From Gammaproteobacteria bacterium (GTDB lineage: Bacteria; Pseudomonadota; Gammaproteobacteria; GCA-2400775), in the NCBI GenBank assembly GCA_015492075.1, contig WGFU01000037.1, positions 1,425 to 65,424 of the forward strand: 64,000 bases of DNA, read 5' to 3'. Positions 9,241 to 29,558 of this stretch are shown here, piece after piece. Under the pieces are notes generated by a model that did not search any database, was not told where the DNA came from, and was given only the letters and a program-made list of their open reading frames with translations. Within the stretch, counting starts at the first letter, position 1; each line of letters begins with the position of its first letter. Made by a program: the position numbers and the translations under genes.

Positions 9241-11684
<2,444 letters not shown>

Positions 11685-11970: not shown

Positions 11971-12093
11971 ATGTATAACATTTTCCCGCTGATCTTGATT
12001 CCGATTGCTATTTTCTTCGGTCTGGCAGTATTTCTTGCAGGATCCATGTCTGAATCTGCCATTGCCTCTTCGCTCGCTGATAAAGACGAATAG
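11971..12093 (+). CDS. 40-aa hydrophobic peptide (single TM), unannotated small ORF
   Basis: MYNIFPLILIPIAIFFGLAVFLAGSMSESAIASSLADKDE. GAGG RBS sits 9 nt upstream, and a candidate sigma70 promoter lies upstream (TTGTTT 11899-11904, 18 bp gap, TATAAT 11923-11928). Sits at the head of module C. Confidence 0.35.
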   Translation: MYNIFPLILIPIAIFFGLAVFLAGSMSESAIASSLADKDE

Positions 12094-12190: not shown

Positions 12191-12706
12191 ATGCCTGCCA
12201 ATGATCAAGACCAGCGCCTAATTGTCTTTTTATTAGGCTCGGCATTTTTTTTGTTTATCGGTACTACGCATGGCGTCGTACAGGTCTTGCCCGGAATTAG
12301 AGACTGGCTGGTCTCGGTCGGCACTCCGGTGAGCGGCCCCGGCCATATGATTGACCCCCTGGCCCACGCCCATATCAATCTGGTAGGCGGTATGGTGCTG
12401 ATCGGCATGGCAATGAGCTATTATCTGTTTCCACGCATTGCTGGCTGCCGCATCTGGTCGAGCCGATTGATCAGTCATTCATTTTGGTGGACTGCTGCCG
12501 GCGTAGTCGGGTTCTACAGCACCTTGATGGTATTTGGCATCACTGAAGGCAATTTGATGCGCGCCGGAGAGCTGGAACAACAAGCGGCCGTTCATGCCTA
12601 CTACGGGCTAACCATTAGCGTCCCCGCAACTATTATGGCCATTGGTTTCTGGATGTTTTTTATCAACATCTTTGCTACCGCACGCACCTACTTCAAGAAC
12701 CGCTAA
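12191..12706 (+). CDS. stand-alone heme-copper oxidase subunit I C-terminal-like membrane protein (half subunit I)
   Basis: 171 aa, ~5 TM; LAHAHINLVGGMV...SYYLFPRI aligns with the helix-X HxH region of the CcoN-like protein (AHAHLALLGF...VYYGLQ) and with the 188-aa paralog at 27115. Confidence 0.5.
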   Translation: MPANDQDQRLIVFLLGSAFFLFIGTTHGVVQVLPGIRDWLVSVGTPVSGPGHMIDPLAHAHINLVGGMVLIGMAMSYYLFPRIAGCRIWSSRLISHSFWWTAAGVVGFYSTLMVFGITEGNLMRAGELEQQAAVHAYYGLTISVPATIMAIGFWMFFINIFATARTYFKNR

Positions 12707-21255: not shown

Positions 21256-21540
21256 TCAAGAACCTTGCTCTGCACTGCGCGCCGCCCTTTGCTTAGCCAA
21301 TACTTCGGCACGACGCTTTTCTTGTGCTGCATTAACTGCTTGCGATTTGGCAAACTCCTCTGGACTCATCTTATCCCGGTCTTTTTCATCGAATACGAGA
21401 TATTTGATATCTTCATCAAACTGCTCATTTTTATACGCCCATCGAATACCGTAGATAGCAGCAATAATAATACCGCCTGCCGCGACCATCCACAGATAGA
21501 TTGTCCACCCATCAGGTAAGGCTTGCATGAATTCAGTCAT
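21256..21540 (-). CDS. CcoQ/FixQ-like small subunit
   Basis: 94 aa; single TM followed by IRWAYKNEQFDEDIKYLVFDE, matching the FixQ pattern TM-W(A)Y..K(R)K..FDE. Confidence 0.45.
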   Translation of the reverse strand: MTEFMQALPDGWTIYLWMVAAGGIIIAAIYGIRWAYKNEQFDEDIKYLVFDEKDRDKMSPEEFAKSQAVNAAQEKRRAEVLAKQRAARSAEQGS

Positions 21541-21920: not shown

Positions 21921-22114
21921 TTCCTTATTTCCTTCAGAAGTGCGCTAAGAAGCCACGCACAGGCTATTTTACTGCTTATCAGACTTGTCGAATTTATCAA
22001 TCATAAAGCTATAGATATAAGGTGCTACGAACACGACCAAAATAGGTATGAGTATTATTAATGGTGGATTATCGATTTCTAACATTTCATTTCACCTGTA
22101 ACTGTAAGTAATGC

Positions 22115-22771: not shown

Positions 22772-23722
22772 TTACTTCAAACTCAAAACATAATCCATGA
22801 GATAACGTATTTCGCTATTTGGCGCATAATCGGGAACCTCAGGCGGATAAATACTCGTACCGGCGGCGTAAGCATTATAATCCGCCCGCCATTGATCATA
22901 GTCAATATCGTTACCATTAGCATCCACTTCACCCCAGAGATAATCGAAGCGAGGCATAATTGAATGTGGCTGCACCAATCTTGGGTTAAAGAAGTGCATC
23001 ATCAGCCATTCTTTTGACGAGTTACGTGAACCAACATGCAGCAAGTCAGGCGCTTTGCGATCCGAACCAAAGGCTGTTGGCGCTTCACCATTAAAGTCTC
23101 CCAGCCGCGGCGGTAAACCGAAGTATTGCCAATCCTGTGTTTGTTCTGGCAATAGTGTGTGACACCACCAGCAACCTTCACGCACAAACATGGTCTTACC
23201 GCTACCTACATGCTGCTTATCGCTGTCTGCAGCAGCTGCCAATACCAACTCAGCTGTCCAGTCACGCGTTGCCGTCACATTTTCGATATAAGGGAAGGTC
23301 TCCCCTTCGTAGTCACCACGCGACACCAAAAATACAGCGCCTTGATCTTCCTCTGCTTCACCCACGCGACCCTCGTCGGCACTTAAGGCCTGCACTTCCC
23401 TACCCAAAATATCTGGGTTACGAATTGCGCTCGGAAAAGGTGTCCCGGCGGTATAAACATAGGCATCTACCGGGTCAATATCCGCGCCAGTAACTGGGTC
23501 TTTTTTAACCGTCACCGTTAAAGGCTTGCCTTTCCCTCGCAAGAATGGGTCTTCATACGAGAAACCAGAGTTATGACCATAGGACAGACCTTTGACCAGA
23601 CCAGTTTCCGTCACACCCACACTATAGATAGTTAAGCTGGGCATATAGAGGGTGATCATCATTGAACCACCCAGGGCGATACCAAACATGCGGGTACCAA
23701 TTTTATATTCTCTAAAAGCCAT
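22772..23722 (-). CDS. CcoO/FixO-like mono-heme cytochrome c subunit with ~110-aa insertion
   Basis: 316 aa; N-terminal TM; CWWCH; C-terminal NSSKEWLMMHFFNPRLVQPHSIMPRF resembles the conserved CcoO C-terminal segment; heme motif displaced to ~residue 180. Confidence 0.7.
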   Translation of the reverse strand: MAFREYKIGTRMFGIALGGSMMITLYMPSLTIYSVGVTETGLVKGLSYGHNSGFSYEDPFLRGKGKPLTVTVKKDPVTGADIDPVDAYVYTAGTPFPSAIRNPDILGREVQALSADEGRVGEAEEDQGAVFLVSRGDYEGETFPYIENVTATRDWTAELVLAAAADSDKQHVGSGKTMFVREGCWWCHTLLPEQTQDWQYFGLPPRLGDFNGEAPTAFGSDRKAPDLLHVGSRNSSKEWLMMHFFNPRLVQPHSIMPRFDYLWGEVDANGNDIDYDQWRADYNAYAAGTSIYPPEVPDYAPNSEIRYLMDYVLSLK

Positions 23723-23784: not shown

Positions 23785-25191
23785 TTAACGTTCGTAAGCG
23801 ATTTCATGCGGTAAGCGTCCCACTGGCACCGGTGTACCTGCACGAGCCGTCATCCACATGTTGTAGAGCCATACAACGTTACCAGTAAATACCATGGTAC
23901 CGCCAACCCAACGCGCAATCATGTACGGATGCTCCGCAATCACCACGTCGATATACGGCACTTCGTAGATCTTGGCAGCGCCTTGAATCAAACCGGCAAT
24001 CGTGATCGAAATCCAGTAGGTGGCGAAACCGATCAGCAAGAACCAGAAATGAAAGTTGGCCAGCGCCAAAGAGTAGATCTTGCGACGCAGAATCGTTTGC
24101 AGACCATAGTACACGGCTGCCGCCTCAAGGAAGGTCGAGAAACCCAGCAAAGCAAGGTGAGCATGAGCGACAATCCAGCCAGTGCCATGGACATACCAGT
24201 TGATCGCACGTGTCTGCTGAAAACCGCCCTGCATATTCAAAGGAATCGCCAGCATAACCCCGGTGATGGTGAACCGGATCTCAATATTATCAACAAAGTA
24301 ATGCCACTTGCCCGTCATGGTTAACAACAAGTTCGACACGAATGCGATCGCAGGCACCAGAATCAACACCCCTTCAACAGAAGCGAAAGATTTCAGCCAC
24401 TCAGGCAGTGGTGAAGACATCAAATGGTGGGCTGCCGGCGTTGAGTAGAACACCACCACCGACCAGAAATGCAAGTGACCAATACGGTGAGAGTACAGTG
24501 GGTTACCGGTAATTTTCGGCACCGTATAGTATGCAATCGCCGCCGCCACCGGGGTAATCCACAGGCCAAGGATGTTATGGGCATGCCACCAGGTCAAATA
24601 GGCTTCGGTCAATCCAGTCAGGGAAAAGTATTCCGGCAGATTACCGACCAGCACCACGATCATCAGCATGAATATCGCCGCACCAAAGAACCAGTTGGTG
24701 GTATAGATACCCTGCGTCTTACGATGAACAATGGTCATCCAGACATTGATTCCCAGCGGCAGCAATACTGCAAACAGGATAATCAAATCAATCGGCCATG
24801 GAAAATCAGTGTATTCACGGCCTGAAGTCACACCGGCCCACATCAAACACAAAGCGACGGCAAGACCACCGTTCCAGTTGAAGCAGGTCCAGATGCCCAG
24901 CTTCTCGGACCATAGCTTGGTATTACCCAAGGCAGGCGTGATATACATAAAGGCCATTGCAAACGCCATGGAAATCCAGCCAAAAATAACGGCCATGACA
25001 TGAACCTGGCGCATATGACCAAAGGCAAACATATAGCTACCGGTAACAAAATCCGGAAAAGCCAACTTGGCTGCGTTGAAAGAACCTAGTCCAGTACCAA
25101 TAATGAACCAGATAATGGATGAAAACCCAAAAAAGACAGCCGCAGAACCTGCGGGAATATCTTCGTTCTTCGCAAAGAGATACTTGAACAT
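23785..25191 (-). CDS. C-family (cbb3-type) heme-copper oxidoreductase subunit I, CcoN-like, divergent
   Basis: 468 aa, 12 TM. W201-W-H-A-H205-N replaces the CcoN WWYGHN motif; Y249-5x-H255-H256 (crosslink Tyr plus CuB His pair) and helix-X H343-x-H345 are present; heme ligand region FGHMRQVHVMAVIF. Confidence 0.85.
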   Translation of the reverse strand: MFKYLFAKNEDIPAGSAAVFFGFSSIIWFIIGTGLGSFNAAKLAFPDFVTGSYMFAFGHMRQVHVMAVIFGWISMAFAMAFMYITPALGNTKLWSEKLGIWTCFNWNGGLAVALCLMWAGVTSGREYTDFPWPIDLIILFAVLLPLGINVWMTIVHRKTQGIYTTNWFFGAAIFMLMIVVLVGNLPEYFSLTGLTEAYLTWWHAHNILGLWITPVAAAIAYYTVPKITGNPLYSHRIGHLHFWSVVVFYSTPAAHHLMSSPLPEWLKSFASVEGVLILVPAIAFVSNLLLTMTGKWHYFVDNIEIRFTITGVMLAIPLNMQGGFQQTRAINWYVHGTGWIVAHAHLALLGFSTFLEAAAVYYGLQTILRRKIYSLALANFHFWFLLIGFATYWISITIAGLIQGAAKIYEVPYIDVVIAEHPYMIARWVGGTMVFTGNVVWLYNMWMTARAGTPVPVGRLPHEIAYER

Positions 25192-25275: not shown

Positions 25276-25368
25276 CTAGTGTTTACCCGGCATCATCAAA
25301 TACCAAGCGAACCACATGCTTGAGAATGCCAGCACAATACAAAATACAGTTGCGATAATAGTAACCAT
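25276..25368 (-). CDS. 30-aa single-TM peptide, unannotated (candidate small oxidase subunit)
   Basis: MVTIIATVFCIVLAFSSMWFAWYLMMPGKH; GAGGA RBS 6 nt upstream; lies between the 95-aa gene and the CcoN-like gene; weak paralogy to the peptide at 29338..29430. Confidence 0.4.
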   Translation of the reverse strand: MVTIIATVFCIVLAFSSMWFAWYLMMPGKH

Positions 25369-25398
25369 CGTTTTTCCTCTATTTAGTACGTGTCGCGC

Positions 25399-25686
25399 TT
25401 AGGCTGCAGCACGTGACTGCGCTTCCAAAGCACCATGACGTGACGCAGAAATCATCATGATCGCCATAAAGGCAAAGCCGAACACAATCATGCACCAATT
25501 GATGAAGCCCATAAAGGTGGTTGGATCATAGGCCTGACCACCCCAACCGCCCCAGTCATCAAAACGACCGCGACCGAGAGCACACATCAATGCGGCACCA
25601 AAAACACTGCCGTTGCCCATGCCGGTGGTAACACCAGCAACCAAGCTCACCCAAAAAGTTTTCGAATATGGCAATAAATTGTCCAT
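25399..25686 (-). CDS. hypothetical 2-TM membrane protein, first gene of the CcoN-like operon
   Basis: 95 aa; AAGGAG RBS 5 nt upstream; Gly/Trp-rich loop (DDWGGWGGQ). Confidence 0.4.
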   Translation of the reverse strand: MDNLLPYSKTFWVSLVAGVTTGMGNGSVFGAALMCALGRGRFDDWGGWGGQAYDPTTFMGFINWCMIVFGFAFMAIMMISASRHGALEAQSRAAA

Positions 25687-25916: not shown

Positions 25917-26141
25917 ATGATGCCTTATCATAACTGGATATCAATAAAAGAAATTATTCTCTACCTTATCGCCATTGTCACGGGCCTTTTTATCGCTGCT
26001 TATTCGGTACATATGTTGATTGGTGGACTTGTCAGCGCTACCACTGAGAAAACCATTATCGCCATTGTCTGCACCCTCATGGCACTGGCCATCGGATTCA
26101 TGGTTTACGACGTGAAAAAACAGCGTGAAAAACAGGGCTGA
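25917..26141 (+). CDS. hypothetical 2-TM small membrane protein
   Basis: 74 aa; only plus-strand gene in the island interior; divergent from the CcoN-like operon. Confidence 0.35.
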   Translation: MMPYHNWISIKEIILYLIAIVTGLFIAAYSVHMLIGGLVSATTEKTIIAIVCTLMALAIGFMVYDVKKQREKQG

Positions 26142-26614: not shown

Positions 26615-27172
26615 CTATCCTGCGTCGGCTAAGGTCTCGGCCAGTAAAGCGTCCATTTCACCATAAAGCATACGACCTGGCCGCCTGAACTTAACTTGTC
26701 GGTCGGCGCCAATAACAAATGTCCACGGATCACCTTGGACACCAAATGCAGTGAAAGCTTCAGGGTTTTGATACTGATCCATATGCAAAAACAGCACATC
26801 ATCTTCGTACTTATTCAATATGGCTTTGAGCATCTGCAGCTGTTTATCGCATACCGTACAATGTCCAGGTGTAGCAAATTCGAGCAAAATCGTCTTGTTT
26901 TGCGCCAAGGCTTCATCGATCGAAAGCTGATACATGCGGGCATCGGGATGTCTGTAGGTTGTAATGCGGCTGAAATCACCGTTCACGTCCGCCAGCGTCT
27001 TGGTCTTCAATGACGGGGCGATCGCACCAACCCGAAGCTGACCCTCTGGCCTGATATCGCATGCGCTTAAGGCTGCTGCTACTACGATTGTCAGCAATAT
27101 TGCTATAAACGGCCTCACGAGACCTCCTTCGCAGACGATGATGGTGCGCTGCCTAGAACGTCTTTTTCCCAA
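26615..27172 (-). CDS. thioredoxin-fold (TlpA/ResA-like) thiol-disulfide oxidoreductase lipoprotein
   Basis: 185 aa; lipobox LSAC; CxxC active site FATPGHCTVC; redoxin fold length. Confidence 0.6.
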   Translation of the reverse strand: MGKRRSRQRTIIVCEGGLVRPFIAILLTIVVAAALSACDIRPEGQLRVGAIAPSLKTKTLADVNGDFSRITTYRHPDARMYQLSIDEALAQNKTILLEFATPGHCTVCDKQLQMLKAILNKYEDDVLFLHMDQYQNPEAFTAFGVQGDPWTFVIGADRQVKFRRPGRMLYGEMDALLAETLADAG

Positions 27173-27681
27173 CCGACACAGCTACGAAAAACGTTATAGC
27201 CCCAGATAATGTTGGCTAACAGCACCATACTGCCAAAGATGCCCATCGCAGCCAACCAAGGCCTGATTATGGCTTCCACTTCATCGGGCGGCAAACTCAC
27301 ACTCGCAGTACCACCGAGAATACCTGCAATCGTAAACAAACTCACCATACCGATCAGACCGGTGTTATGGATCCAAAAGTGTACTTTTACCAATTTCAAA
27401 CTGAAAATAGGGCGTTTAACCAAACGCGGCACGAAATAATACACCGAGGCAAAAATCGCCATCTCCACCCAGCCTAACAGGTTAACGTGGGTGTGCGCGC
27501 GTACAATCAGCTGCCCATGTGCGCGATGATCGACGAAATGGCGCAGTTCGGCCACCCCTCCCATTAACGCACCCCAGGAAAAGCCGATTATGCTGTAGAT
27601 GATACAGGCATAAAGAAACCACAGTGTATAACGCGTGTATTCAATATCTGTCTCCCAGGGGGAGTGACTCGAAACCTTCAC
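27115..27681 (-). CDS. stand-alone heme-copper oxidase subunit I C-terminal-like membrane protein (half subunit I), paralog of 12191..12706
   Basis: 188 aa, ~5 TM; RAHTHVNLLGWVEMAIFASVYYFVPRL and HFWIHNTGL align to helix IX-XII of the CcoN-like protein; 4-nt overlap with the upstream cytochrome c gene. Confidence 0.5.
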   Translation of the reverse strand: MKVSSHSPWETDIEYTRYTLWFLYACIIYSIIGFSWGALMGGVAELRHFVDHRAHGQLIVRAHTHVNLLGWVEMAIFASVYYFVPRLVKRPIFSLKLVKVHFWIHNTGLIGMVSLFTIAGILGGTASVSLPPDEVEAIIRPWLAAMGIFGSMVLLANIIWGYNVFRSCVGWEKDVLGSAPSSSAKEVS

Positions 27682-28355
27682 TGCTGCGCCTCCGGGTTTT
27701 CAGCCAATTTCCCATTGGGAGACTTCAGGACTTCGGTAAAATTCTTGTCACGCACATCACCGTATTTCTCTTTCCAGCTTTCCGGCGCCCAGATACTGAG
27801 CATGCTCTCAATAAACGGCGAGCGCCCTTCCGGCGGCTTAGGTGCCGTTGAGGAACCCTGTTTAGCACGCAGTTGAGACAAAAACGTTGCGATCAAGTCA
27901 TGCTCTCGCGGCGTCAGCTCAGCCACATAGGCAGCTTCTTTACCCAAACCGTGATCAAGCGTTGCTGCGTGGTAGGTGTCTTTGTATACCGGCTCTGGGT
28001 CACTGAGAAAGCGCCTGATCCAATCCTGGCTACGACGCGAGCCAATACCATCGAGCGTGGTCTGACCGCCCATACTCGTGCCAGACAAAAAAGCACGATG
28101 ACAAGACGCACAACGCTTAGCCTTGAAAAGTCGATGGCCCTTATTGCCGTCTTCGGACAAATCAAAACTGGTGAGATTTGAAAAAATCTGCTTGTTCGAA
28201 GTCAGGCGATACCCTTCCAAGCCGACATAACCCACCAACGCCACCACAATAAATACACCAGCGATGCCAAATAAGACCTTTTCGCCTCGCTTTAGCCTCG
28301 ACTTCGCAGCCATAAAAACCCCGCAATTATTCCAGATAAAACAAAAGGTGGACAA
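27678..28355 (-). CDS. membrane-anchored mono-heme c-type cytochrome (paralog of 20449..20997)
   Basis: 225 aa; N-terminal TM; CASCH; shares RGEK...LDGIGSRRSQDWIRRFLSDP with the module A cytochrome. Confidence 0.6.
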   Translation of the reverse strand: MSTFCFIWNNCGVFMAAKSRLKRGEKVLFGIAGVFIVVALVGYVGLEGYRLTSNKQIFSNLTSFDLSEDGNKGHRLFKAKRCASCHRAFLSGTSMGGQTTLDGIGSRRSQDWIRRFLSDPEPVYKDTYHAATLDHGLGKEAAYVAELTPREHDLIATFLSQLRAKQGSSTAPKPPEGRSPFIESMLSIWAPESWKEKYGDVRDKNFTEVLKSPNGKLAENPEAQQ

Positions 28356-28419: not shown

Positions 28420-29181
28420 CTAGTGGTAAGGCACGTGGCGTGGCGGTAAGCGGGAATTACCCATGCTGTAGGGGGATGCTTCCTTGGTGCTGAGATAGGC
28501 AGCAACGTTGTGGATGTCCTCGTCGGACATATTCTTGGCAACATTGCGCATCGCTGCCTGCGGATCATTGGTCCGCACACCATCACGCCATTGCTTCATT
28601 TGAGCCACGAGATAGGTATATTTCTGCTGCCCAATCATCGGGAACATTGGCTCAACGCCGCGGCCGTTATAATCATGGCAAGAACGGCAAGCTGCCACAC
28701 TCTTTTCAGCAATACCGTGATTAACGATGGCTTTACCCAAATAGGTTTCACCGACCTCAACACCATTCGCCTTCAATGTGGCCAGATTAGAAACAGAGGC
28801 ATCAACCGTTTCTCTATCATGTTGCCATTCGCTGATATAAGCCGCCACATCAAGGCGCTCCTGCGAAGTCAGGCCTTTGGCGTTAGCATTCATGATAAAC
28901 ATGACGGTATCTTCACGCTTGTCGGTCGCATAATCTTCCAGCTGCTTGACGATAAACTGGAAAATCTGGCCGGCCAGACGCGGGGTGCCTAAATCGTCAC
29001 TGCCCATTCCGTCCGGCATATGGCAGCCAGAACACGCTGGTACGCCAGTGGCTTCTTTGCCGTTGTTATAAATCTGCTCGCCGTTTGCTACATCGACAGT
29101 CACGCCGCCGGCGAAAACAGCGGAACTTGCTGAAAACGCAAAAGCAAAAAGCGAACCCACCAACCTAGTTGAGTAACGCAT
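28420..29181 (-). CDS. di-heme c-type cytochrome (c4-like), periplasmic
   Basis: Two heme motifs CSGCH and CRSCH. Start moved to the internal Met (MRYSTRLVG...) with signal peptide and GGAGGG RBS; the ORF-track 29271 start adds a non-signal extension. Confidence 0.7.
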   Translation of the reverse strand: MRYSTRLVGSLFAFAFSASSAVFAGGVTVDVANGEQIYNNGKEATGVPACSGCHMPDGMGSDDLGTPRLAGQIFQFIVKQLEDYATDKREDTVMFIMNANAKGLTSQERLDVAAYISEWQHDRETVDASVSNLATLKANGVEVGETYLGKAIVNHGIAEKSVAACRSCHDYNGRGVEPMFPMIGQQKYTYLVAQMKQWRDGVRTNDPQAAMRNVAKNMSDEDIHNVAAYLSTKEASPYSMGNSRLPPRHVPYH

Positions 29182-29337
29182 TACTACACCCTCCAAAAAA
29201 CTGTGTCGAGGCCGTAACCGGCCTTTTGTTAAAGGTAGTCTGTGACCTACTGCCAACGCAGAGCATTTCACTATGCAGCAGCCAATAATGTCAGATCTAT
29301 GTCAGGTAAGTGAATCACCTACCATTTTTTGGTTTGC

Positions 29338-29430
29338 TTAAGAGTTTTTCTTCAGCAAAAACCAAGCAAATCCCCAAGCCAGCGGGAACCAAATCGCATA
29401 AAGTATAACTACACTGGCAGTATCTAGCAT
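29338..29430 (-). CDS. 30-aa single-TM peptide, unannotated (paralog of 25276..25368)
   Basis: MLDTASVVILYAIWFPLAWGFAWFLLKKNS; GAGGT RBS 6 nt upstream; lies upstream of the di-heme cytochrome gene; shares the W-FAW(F/Y)L(L/M) C-terminal pattern. Confidence 0.4.
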   Translation of the reverse strand: MLDTASVVILYAIWFPLAWGFAWFLLKKNS

Positions 29431-29558
29431 GGCTTACCTCAATTATTTATGATTCATTTAATGAACAAAACGGGCGACTGTATACCATGTTAACCCTACT
29501 CAGCGCAAGTTTATACAAACTGTAGCAGGGCCAAAAATGGCGCCTTTTTTACCCAAAT

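Follow-up and report, generated by a model that had tools for sequence, protein, structure and literature searches.

Small oxidase subunits that consist of a single helix are known, and CcoM, CcoQ, CydX and subunit IIa of the ba3 oxidase are the described examples (PMC4742706). CcoM of the Pseudomonas stutzeri cbb3-1 oxidase is a 36-aa protein with one helix packed against CcoN (PDB 5DJQ); it is almost exclusive to Pseudomonas and its gene lies far from the cco operons (PMC4742706). CydX and CydS of cytochrome bd and subunit IIa of ba3 are single-helix micro-subunits required for stability or activity and are encoded beside the catalytic genes. Within cbb3 operons, the gene for the single-pass membrane peptide CcoQ/FixQ (PF05545) sits between ccoO and ccoP. 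CcoQ is roughly 50-70 aa in size.

The genes studied here lie in the 'distal cbb3' region known from iron oxidisers and Tenderiales, which was described earlier (Ducluzeau et al.). In S. lithotrophicus ES-1 the distal ccoNO genes are highly expressed, their normalised level exceeding that of the proximal form about 3-fold (PMC8788666). A set of 20 genes, most of them hypothetical, keeps its order between ES-1 and PV-1 according to Emerson et al. 2013 (PMC3770913), and the identity of this gene suite with the distal cbb3 cluster is only likely. A preprint on the Tenderiales described a conserved region of 26 genes as 'a sort of alternative complex IV' and noted small single-TM 'STMD' proteins in other Tenderiales cbb3 regions (10.1101/2022.05.06.490989). 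In Fig. 2B of that preprint, an unlabelled gene 1 (ALP51721.1) precedes the di-haem cytochrome gene and a gene 9 found by RAST only (peg.91) precedes CcoN, and neither of them is given a sequence, name, function or conservation analysis there.

In the 64-kb stretch of DNA analysed here (the window), the initial annotation had pointed to two 30-codon ORFs with a single TM segment and a Shine-Dalgarno (SD) motif, and both were borne out, each on the minus strand. Peptide A (25276..25368, minus strand; MVTIIATVFCIVLAFSSMWFAWYLMMPGKH) is a 30-aa single-helix micro-protein of an unnamed family with the core LAFSSMWFxWYLLxP. Peptide B (29338..29430, minus strand; MLDTASVVILYAIWFPLAWGFAWFLLKKNS) is likewise a single-helix micro-protein of 30 aa, the first gene of a neighbouring module (module B), and its family has the consensus MLxTGxVLxxYxxWFVxAFGLAxxxLKKNS. 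Both peptides start with ATG in the window. The SD was said to lie 6 nt before each start codon, which is the spacing that we read for peptide A (GAGGA, 25375..25379, minus strand), whereas the SD of peptide B (GAGGT, 29436..29440, minus strand) has a 5-nt spacer to its ATG. Synteny confirmed that A is directly followed by the CcoN-like gene, with an ATG 84 nt past the end of the peptide, and B by the di-haem cytochrome c gene, with an ATG 156 nt past its end. Of the proposal that the two peptides head their modules, the half on B stands but the half on A does not, because a gene for a 95-aa protein (p95) lies 30 nt before A in every locus. The description of both as unannotated needs a similar correction: in the gene calls of NCBI record GCA_027053915.1 (L089), which matches the window, A is uncalled but B is called, and the exact sequences of A and of B are present, though without a name, in public protein collections. 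ATG ORFs of 25-45 codons with an SD and a TM-like segment number four in the 64-kb window versus 0.2 expected from shuffles, and these four include A and B. The gene order over modules B and A of the window is the order in the Tenderiales preprint (10.1101/2022.05.06.490989), where ALP51721.1 and peg.91 occupy the positions of B and A, a correspondence by position alone. The two families are thus unnamed and uncharacterised, yet not wholly unseen before.

Read 5' to 3' on the minus strand, the cluster runs from B through the di-haem cytochrome c, a mono-haem cytochrome c, a 'truncated CcoN', a thioredoxin-like protein and p150; it continues past an opposite-strand 74-aa gene with p95, A, the CcoN-like gene, the FixO-like gene, p209, a 38-aa ORF, p96 and p94, and ends with a cytochrome c, p163, an FGE-like protein, p124 and an 869-aa protein with a spermidine-synthase-like domain. 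The CcoN-like gene (23785..25191, minus strand) encodes subunit I of a divergent ('distal') cbb3-type haem-copper oxidase (Pfam COX1, 2e-73). Its product reached 223 bits against the TIGR00780 ccoN model, whose cut-off is 583, and a score so far under the equivalog cut-off fits the divergent 'distal' subtree (PMC8788666). When the protein was aligned to P. stutzeri CcoN (3MK7 chain A), the histidines of haem b, haem b3 and CuB were all found to be kept, together with the helix-VII Tyr of the Y-x5-HH motif; judged by its sequence, the partner of A qualifies as a C-family (cbb3-type) haem-copper O2 reductase. The FixO/CcoO-like mono-haem subunit II of 316 aa (22772..23722, minus strand; Pfam FixO, 1e-16) is syntenic wherever it is in range. 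On the other side of A, the conserved membrane protein p95 (25399..25686, minus strand) precedes A by tblastn in all loci that reach far enough upstream, an order repeated by the Zetaproteobacterial loci and by the reciprocal look-ups described below, and searches of Pfam and NCBIfam gave no match for it. The sole CcoP-like protein of the cluster is p209, which matches the N-terminal FixP_N domain weakly and showed no match to a haem or cytochrome c domain in the profile scan. A weak FixS/CcoS match was obtained for p94 (21256..21540, minus strand; E=0.0027, 17.8 bits against a cut-off of 23.1 bits), which may be a CcoS-like maturation factor of the cluster; this protein carries a W..KNEQFDED motif after one TM helix. 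Between p150 and p95, on the plus strand, lies the gene for the two-helix 74-aa protein (25917..26141; motif GYSVHMxxGGLVS), which is kept in about 50 loci, measures 63 aa in Zetaproteobacteria and has no family match.

In module B, the di-haem cytochrome c (28420..29181, minus strand; 253 aa from the ATG at 29181, a start taken from the L089 gene call) has a signal-peptide-like N-terminus and matches Pfam Cytochrom_C twice. It is followed by a membrane-anchored mono-haem cytochrome c (27678..28313, minus strand; Pfam Cytochrom_C, L089 gene call) and by a 188-aa protein made of the C-terminal helices of COX1 (27115..27681, minus strand; Pfam COX1 profile positions 298-434), which is listed as a truncated CcoN in the Tenderiales preprint (10.1101/2022.05.06.490989). 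This stand-alone protein aligns to residues ~341-460 of solved CcoN chains (3MK7 chain A) and is conserved in module B beside the two cytochromes c and the thioredoxin-like protein.

Related loci were collected through an alignment of CcoN-like homologues (80 loci) and through exact-protein look-up (nine loci), Zetaproteobacteria included. Of the 88 loci with upstream sequence, which come from Gamma-, Beta- and Zetaproteobacteria, 87 have an A-like ORF shortly before the CcoN-like gene, and the order in these loci is always p95-like, A, CcoN-like and FixO-like. Reciprocal look-ups from three independent A-family proteins of the profile search returned p95-like, A, COX1 (468/469 aa) and FixO in 6 of 6 places. 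A therefore occurs strictly together with ccoN-ccoO and in the same orientation. The sole locus without A (L086) holds an orphan CcoN-like gene that is also devoid of FixO, p95 and all other partners. This orphan (10001..11410 in L086) is 76% identical to the window copy and is flanked by cydP-cydA-cydB-cydX directly downstream and by a divergent sigma-54 activator upstream; either the gene has truly relocated or the assembly is chimeric here.

The core LAFSSMWFxWYLLxP is near-identical across Gamma-, Beta- and Zetaproteobacteria (Zetaproteobacterial form, MDTIASILGVLLAFSSMWFAWYLLMPGQHDEEQDD). A family A profile search over 5.8 billion proteins, led by a natural 50-aa variant, placed the family in 488 public clusters. 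The best 120 of these 488 clusters are 29-76 aa long and without a Pfam domain, their source names read 'hypothetical protein' save for one JGI mislabel, and no natural A-CcoN fusion is among them. Candidatus Nitrotoga has throughout a 67-aa form of A with a soluble tail of ~40 residues (P0149; L095, 2501..2704). On identical or near-identical Zetaproteobacterial contigs, the 35-aa A gene is called in JGI/ENA sets (L081, L082, L084) and missing in NCBI sets (L083, L085), which looks like a systematic annotation gap for family A.

Conservation at the protein level was evident for both families. By codon position, the entropy is 0.85/0.32/1.42 in family A and 1.09/0.70/1.58 in family B (24 codons, 46 distinct sequences), and dN/dS was estimated at ~0.17 for A (NG86, 26 ungapped codons, 77 distinct nucleotide sequences) and ~0.32 for B, values that are rough since dS is near saturation (~1.5). 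At the invariant Ala, Ala and Pro columns of family A (A5, A13, P26) all four codons are used. The +1 frame of family A contains stops in 77 of 77 sequences, and its +2 frame has a dN/dS of ~3. All family A loci have an ATG and an SD, with a GGAGG/GGGG/GAGG-type motif in every locus listed; family B starts with ATG, or with GTG in a few cases, and shows an SD-like motif in every locus. Taken together, codon-position entropy, dN/dS, reading frames and start codons with SD motifs demonstrate that A and B are protein-coding genes under purifying selection, so that the checks proposed with the initial annotation, conservation by tblastn and the pattern of synonymous and non-synonymous changes, both came out in favour of the two ORFs. 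The ORFs are very short and A is uncalled in several NCBI records, as might be expected of chance ORFs in non-coding spacers, but the codon-position, dN/dS, frame and synteny results refute this explanation and we give it virtually no weight.

The same results bear on a possible role of the ORFs as leader peptides or regulatory upstream ORFs, whose translation itself would control the ccoN or cytochrome genes. Both lie immediately 5' of larger genes, and B is the first gene of its operon with a GGCCG-GTTA-CGGCC hairpin in the 156-nt gap behind it. Selection nevertheless acts at the amino-acid level, with conserved helix faces and conserved termini, and the distance to the following gene ranges between 18 and 208 nt (up to 142 nt without one outlier). 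Rfam and terminator/promoter scans detected no Rfam element or terminator-like site between either peptide and the downstream genes, and the Nitrotoga form of A has gained a 40-residue soluble tail that would be unexpected in a leader. We consider a leader function very unlikely on these grounds. The hairpin itself (29190..29225, minus strand), which has no T-run and lies inside the spacer between B and the di-haem gene, could modulate how strongly B and the downstream cytochromes are expressed relative to each other.

In 51 of 52 loci a family B ORF (at least 12 bits) lies no more than 500 nt before the di-haem cytochrome c gene, and the 52nd locus (L088) has a B-like ORF ending in KKNS that scored 11.7 bits, just under the threshold. 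The longest natural form of B in the locus set is 34 aa. Where module B is inverted and relocated (L032, L043, L055), B travels with it. Five Zetaproteobacterial loci from two distinct lineages are without the di-haem gene and also without B, while they keep the mono-haem cytochrome, the truncated CcoN, the thioredoxin-like protein and p150; 29 further loci have no module B in range and no B. The absence of B from the Zetaproteobacterial loci and from the 29 loci without module B indicates that the oxidase itself can do without B. Cross-tabulation of B with the di-haem gene, present together or absent together, further indicates that B tracks the di-haem cytochrome specifically, whereas A tracks the oxidase genes. 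The suggestion that both peptides are micro-subunits of a terminal oxidase is thus upheld in so far as both are conserved and linked to respiratory modules, but B follows the di-haem cytochrome gene and not the catalytic subunit of the oxidase.

The two peptides had been described as a conserved paralogous pair with a shared W-x-FAW-[FY]-L-[LM] pattern, and the window copies do have six residues in common, FAW[YF]L[ML], as well as the same length and a similar hydrophobicity; the leading W-x, however, occurs in B only. At the level of the families this likeness disappears. The Trp column of FAW in family B is A21/F10/W6, with FAW confined to the closest relatives of the window peptide, and the conserved residues differ, being A6, A14, S17, M18, Y23 and P27 in A and Y11, A22, K27 and S30 in B. 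Comparison of the two families by hhalign gave a probability of 0.95% (E=0.057) over 7 columns. Descent of A and B from one micro-subunit family is hardly tenable in light of these data.

Neither family resembles a known small subunit. In Pfam hmmscan searches at E<=10 with 34 members of A and 31 of B, none of the FixQ, FixS (PF03597), CydX and CcoM-like models was matched, and NCBIfam gave no match for either peptide. Profile searches with A and B against all PDB chains (E<=10) returned chance matches only, such as an LH1 alpha chain and antibody light chains, and did not meet the CcoM chain of 5DJQ with its conserved M17, F20 and F24. No structure of a distal-type cbb3 oxidase is in the PDB, where the closest entries are canonical cbb3 oxidases such as 3MK7/5DJQ (~224 bits). 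Two candidate matches for B were rejected as noise. CcmD_alt (PF20077) was hit by 4 of the 31 members with a best E of 5.6e-4, but on re-scan by one of 10 (E=0.11; 13 bits against a cut-off of 23.5), and there are no ccm genes near B; CydS was hit by one member (E=0.014).

The likeness to known subunits is one of kind. CcoM is of similar size to A and B (35-39 aa), also came to light late for want of annotation, and is proposed to have a stabilising role; A differs from it in being strictly operon-linked and spread over three proteobacterial classes. CcoQ resembles A as a single-pass membrane peptide encoded within a cbb3 operon, but the A gene lies between p95 and ccoN, and the B gene is further unlike that of CcoQ in lying ~4 kb upstream, before the di-haem cytochrome gene. 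CydX, CydS and ba3 subunit IIa belong to other oxidase superfamilies or subfamilies and have no sequence similarity to A or B.

The pattern of conservation along each helix provides a further distinction. In A, the C-terminal half (LAFSSMWFxWYLLxP) is conserved on all helix faces and is probably buried against partner helices for this reason, whereas in the N-terminal half only an i/i+4/i+8 stripe of small residues is kept (A6, G/C10, A14); a helical-moment test found no single conserved face in A. In B, conservation lies on one helix face (moment 0.51 at 100 degrees), as is typical of a helix packed on a partner. B has an acidic N-terminus and a C-terminus of +2 in 39 of 45 sequences, from which we infer an N-out/C-in topology by the positive-inside rule. 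The charge of the C-terminal tail of A spans -5 to +5 across the family, a spread from which the positive-inside rule predicts no single orientation.

Based on these data, our preferred reading, to which we assign a probability of about 0.6, is that A and B are genuine genes of two unrelated families, A being a small subunit or factor of the oxidase and B a membrane partner of the di-haem cytochrome. A would be translated from one transcript with p95, CcoN and CcoO, insert into the membrane as one helix, and serve the 'distal'-type cbb3 oxidase either as a small accessory subunit or as a factor closely coupled to it in assembly or stabilisation. B would be an N-out/C-in helix, co-inherited with the gene for the periplasmic di-haem cytochrome c, that most likely ties this cytochrome to the membrane proteins of module B, the mono-haem cytochrome c and the truncated CcoN. 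Coding status, purifying selection, strict synteny and the lack of homology to known small subunits are established for the two peptides. Their co-transcription, topology and insertion into the membrane are predictions, and their physical association with a complex and a role in stabilising it are suggested by synteny and by the precedent of known subunits; for A, the simplest account is that of a small subunit beside the cbb3-like oxidase.

The tail of A raises another prospect. Histidine occurs in 55 of 74 distinct A tails (PGxH, or PHE...HH), and two Gammaproteobacteria MAGs (L050, L076) have A forms of 50-54 aa with CxxC...CC tails. A, and perhaps B, might instead be a transient maturation factor, for example for the insertion of copper or haem into CcoN, with the His- or Cys-rich tail handling the metal, and the presence in the cluster of a thioredoxin-like protein and a weakly FixS/CcoS-like protein would suit such a role. 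A whole subgroup of A has His-free tails (PRDRG, PRNKD, PKKKK), however, the best-conserved part of A is the membrane helix and not the tail, and no similarity to the FixS, PCuAC or Sco families was found. A maturation factor is therefore possible but doubtful. It is also conceivable that A and B are independent small membrane proteins, such as stress peptides or transporter regulators, that sit in the cluster by linkage only, since many bacterial small membrane proteins target unrelated partners and it is gene context that links A and B to the complexes. The invariant gene order over three proteobacterial classes and the relocation of B together with its module argue against this, and we regard an independent role as distinctly unlikely. 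The assignment of A to the oxidase and of B to the di-haem cytochrome remains the reading that we favour.

The window contains further micro-ORFs. A third single-helix ORF of 38 aa (21969..22085, minus strand; MLEIDNPPLIILIPILVVFVAPYIYSFMIDKFDKSDKQ), absent from the initial annotation, lies between the FixP_N-like p209 and p96. It gave 67 tblastn matches, namely the window and 66 related loci, takes a 44-aa form in Zetaproteobacteria and is called in L089; its motif is M[IL][DE]xDN[PG]P...YSFF[VI]D and it has no Pfam match. Because it is placed after the CcoO-like and CcoP-like genes, this ORF corresponds to CcoQ in position more closely than A does. No match to the FixQ family was found among the cluster proteins scanned, so that either A or the 38-aa ORF could take the role of CcoQ. 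The only other intergenic match of the filter for an SD and a TM-like segment is a 40-codon ORF with an ATG start (11971..12093, plus strand; MYNIFPLILIPIAIFFGLAVFLAGSMSESAIASSLADKDE), which lies in the gap between the plus-strand ORFs 9993..11684 and 12191..12706.

A more far-reaching proposal is that A, B and the 38-aa peptide are stoichiometric subunits of one dedicated respiratory assembly, the 'alternative complex IV' of iron oxidisers and electroautotrophs, as suggested for the Tenderiales. In such an assembly A would complete a distal cbb3 oxidase lacking both CcoQ and a haem-bearing CcoP, B would dock the di-haem cytochrome c on the truncated-CcoN module, and the His- and Cys-rich tails of A would take part in copper handling or sensing. 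We consider this full proposal unlikely, and prefer the more limited one in which A belongs with the oxidase and B with the di-haem cytochrome.

With A and B, two new families join a kind of component already known, and the picture of how such oxidases work is unchanged by them. They expose an annotation gap, with A uncalled in several NCBI records, and the predicted masses and helices of the micro-proteins can serve as targets for purification, cryo-EM and proteomics. The distal cbb3 oxidase is a highly expressed terminal oxidase of neutrophilic iron oxidisers, and its region is also conserved in the electroautotrophic Tenderiales; the three micro-ORFs, which are strictly syntenic and under protein-level selection, provide concrete candidates for its missing small subunits.
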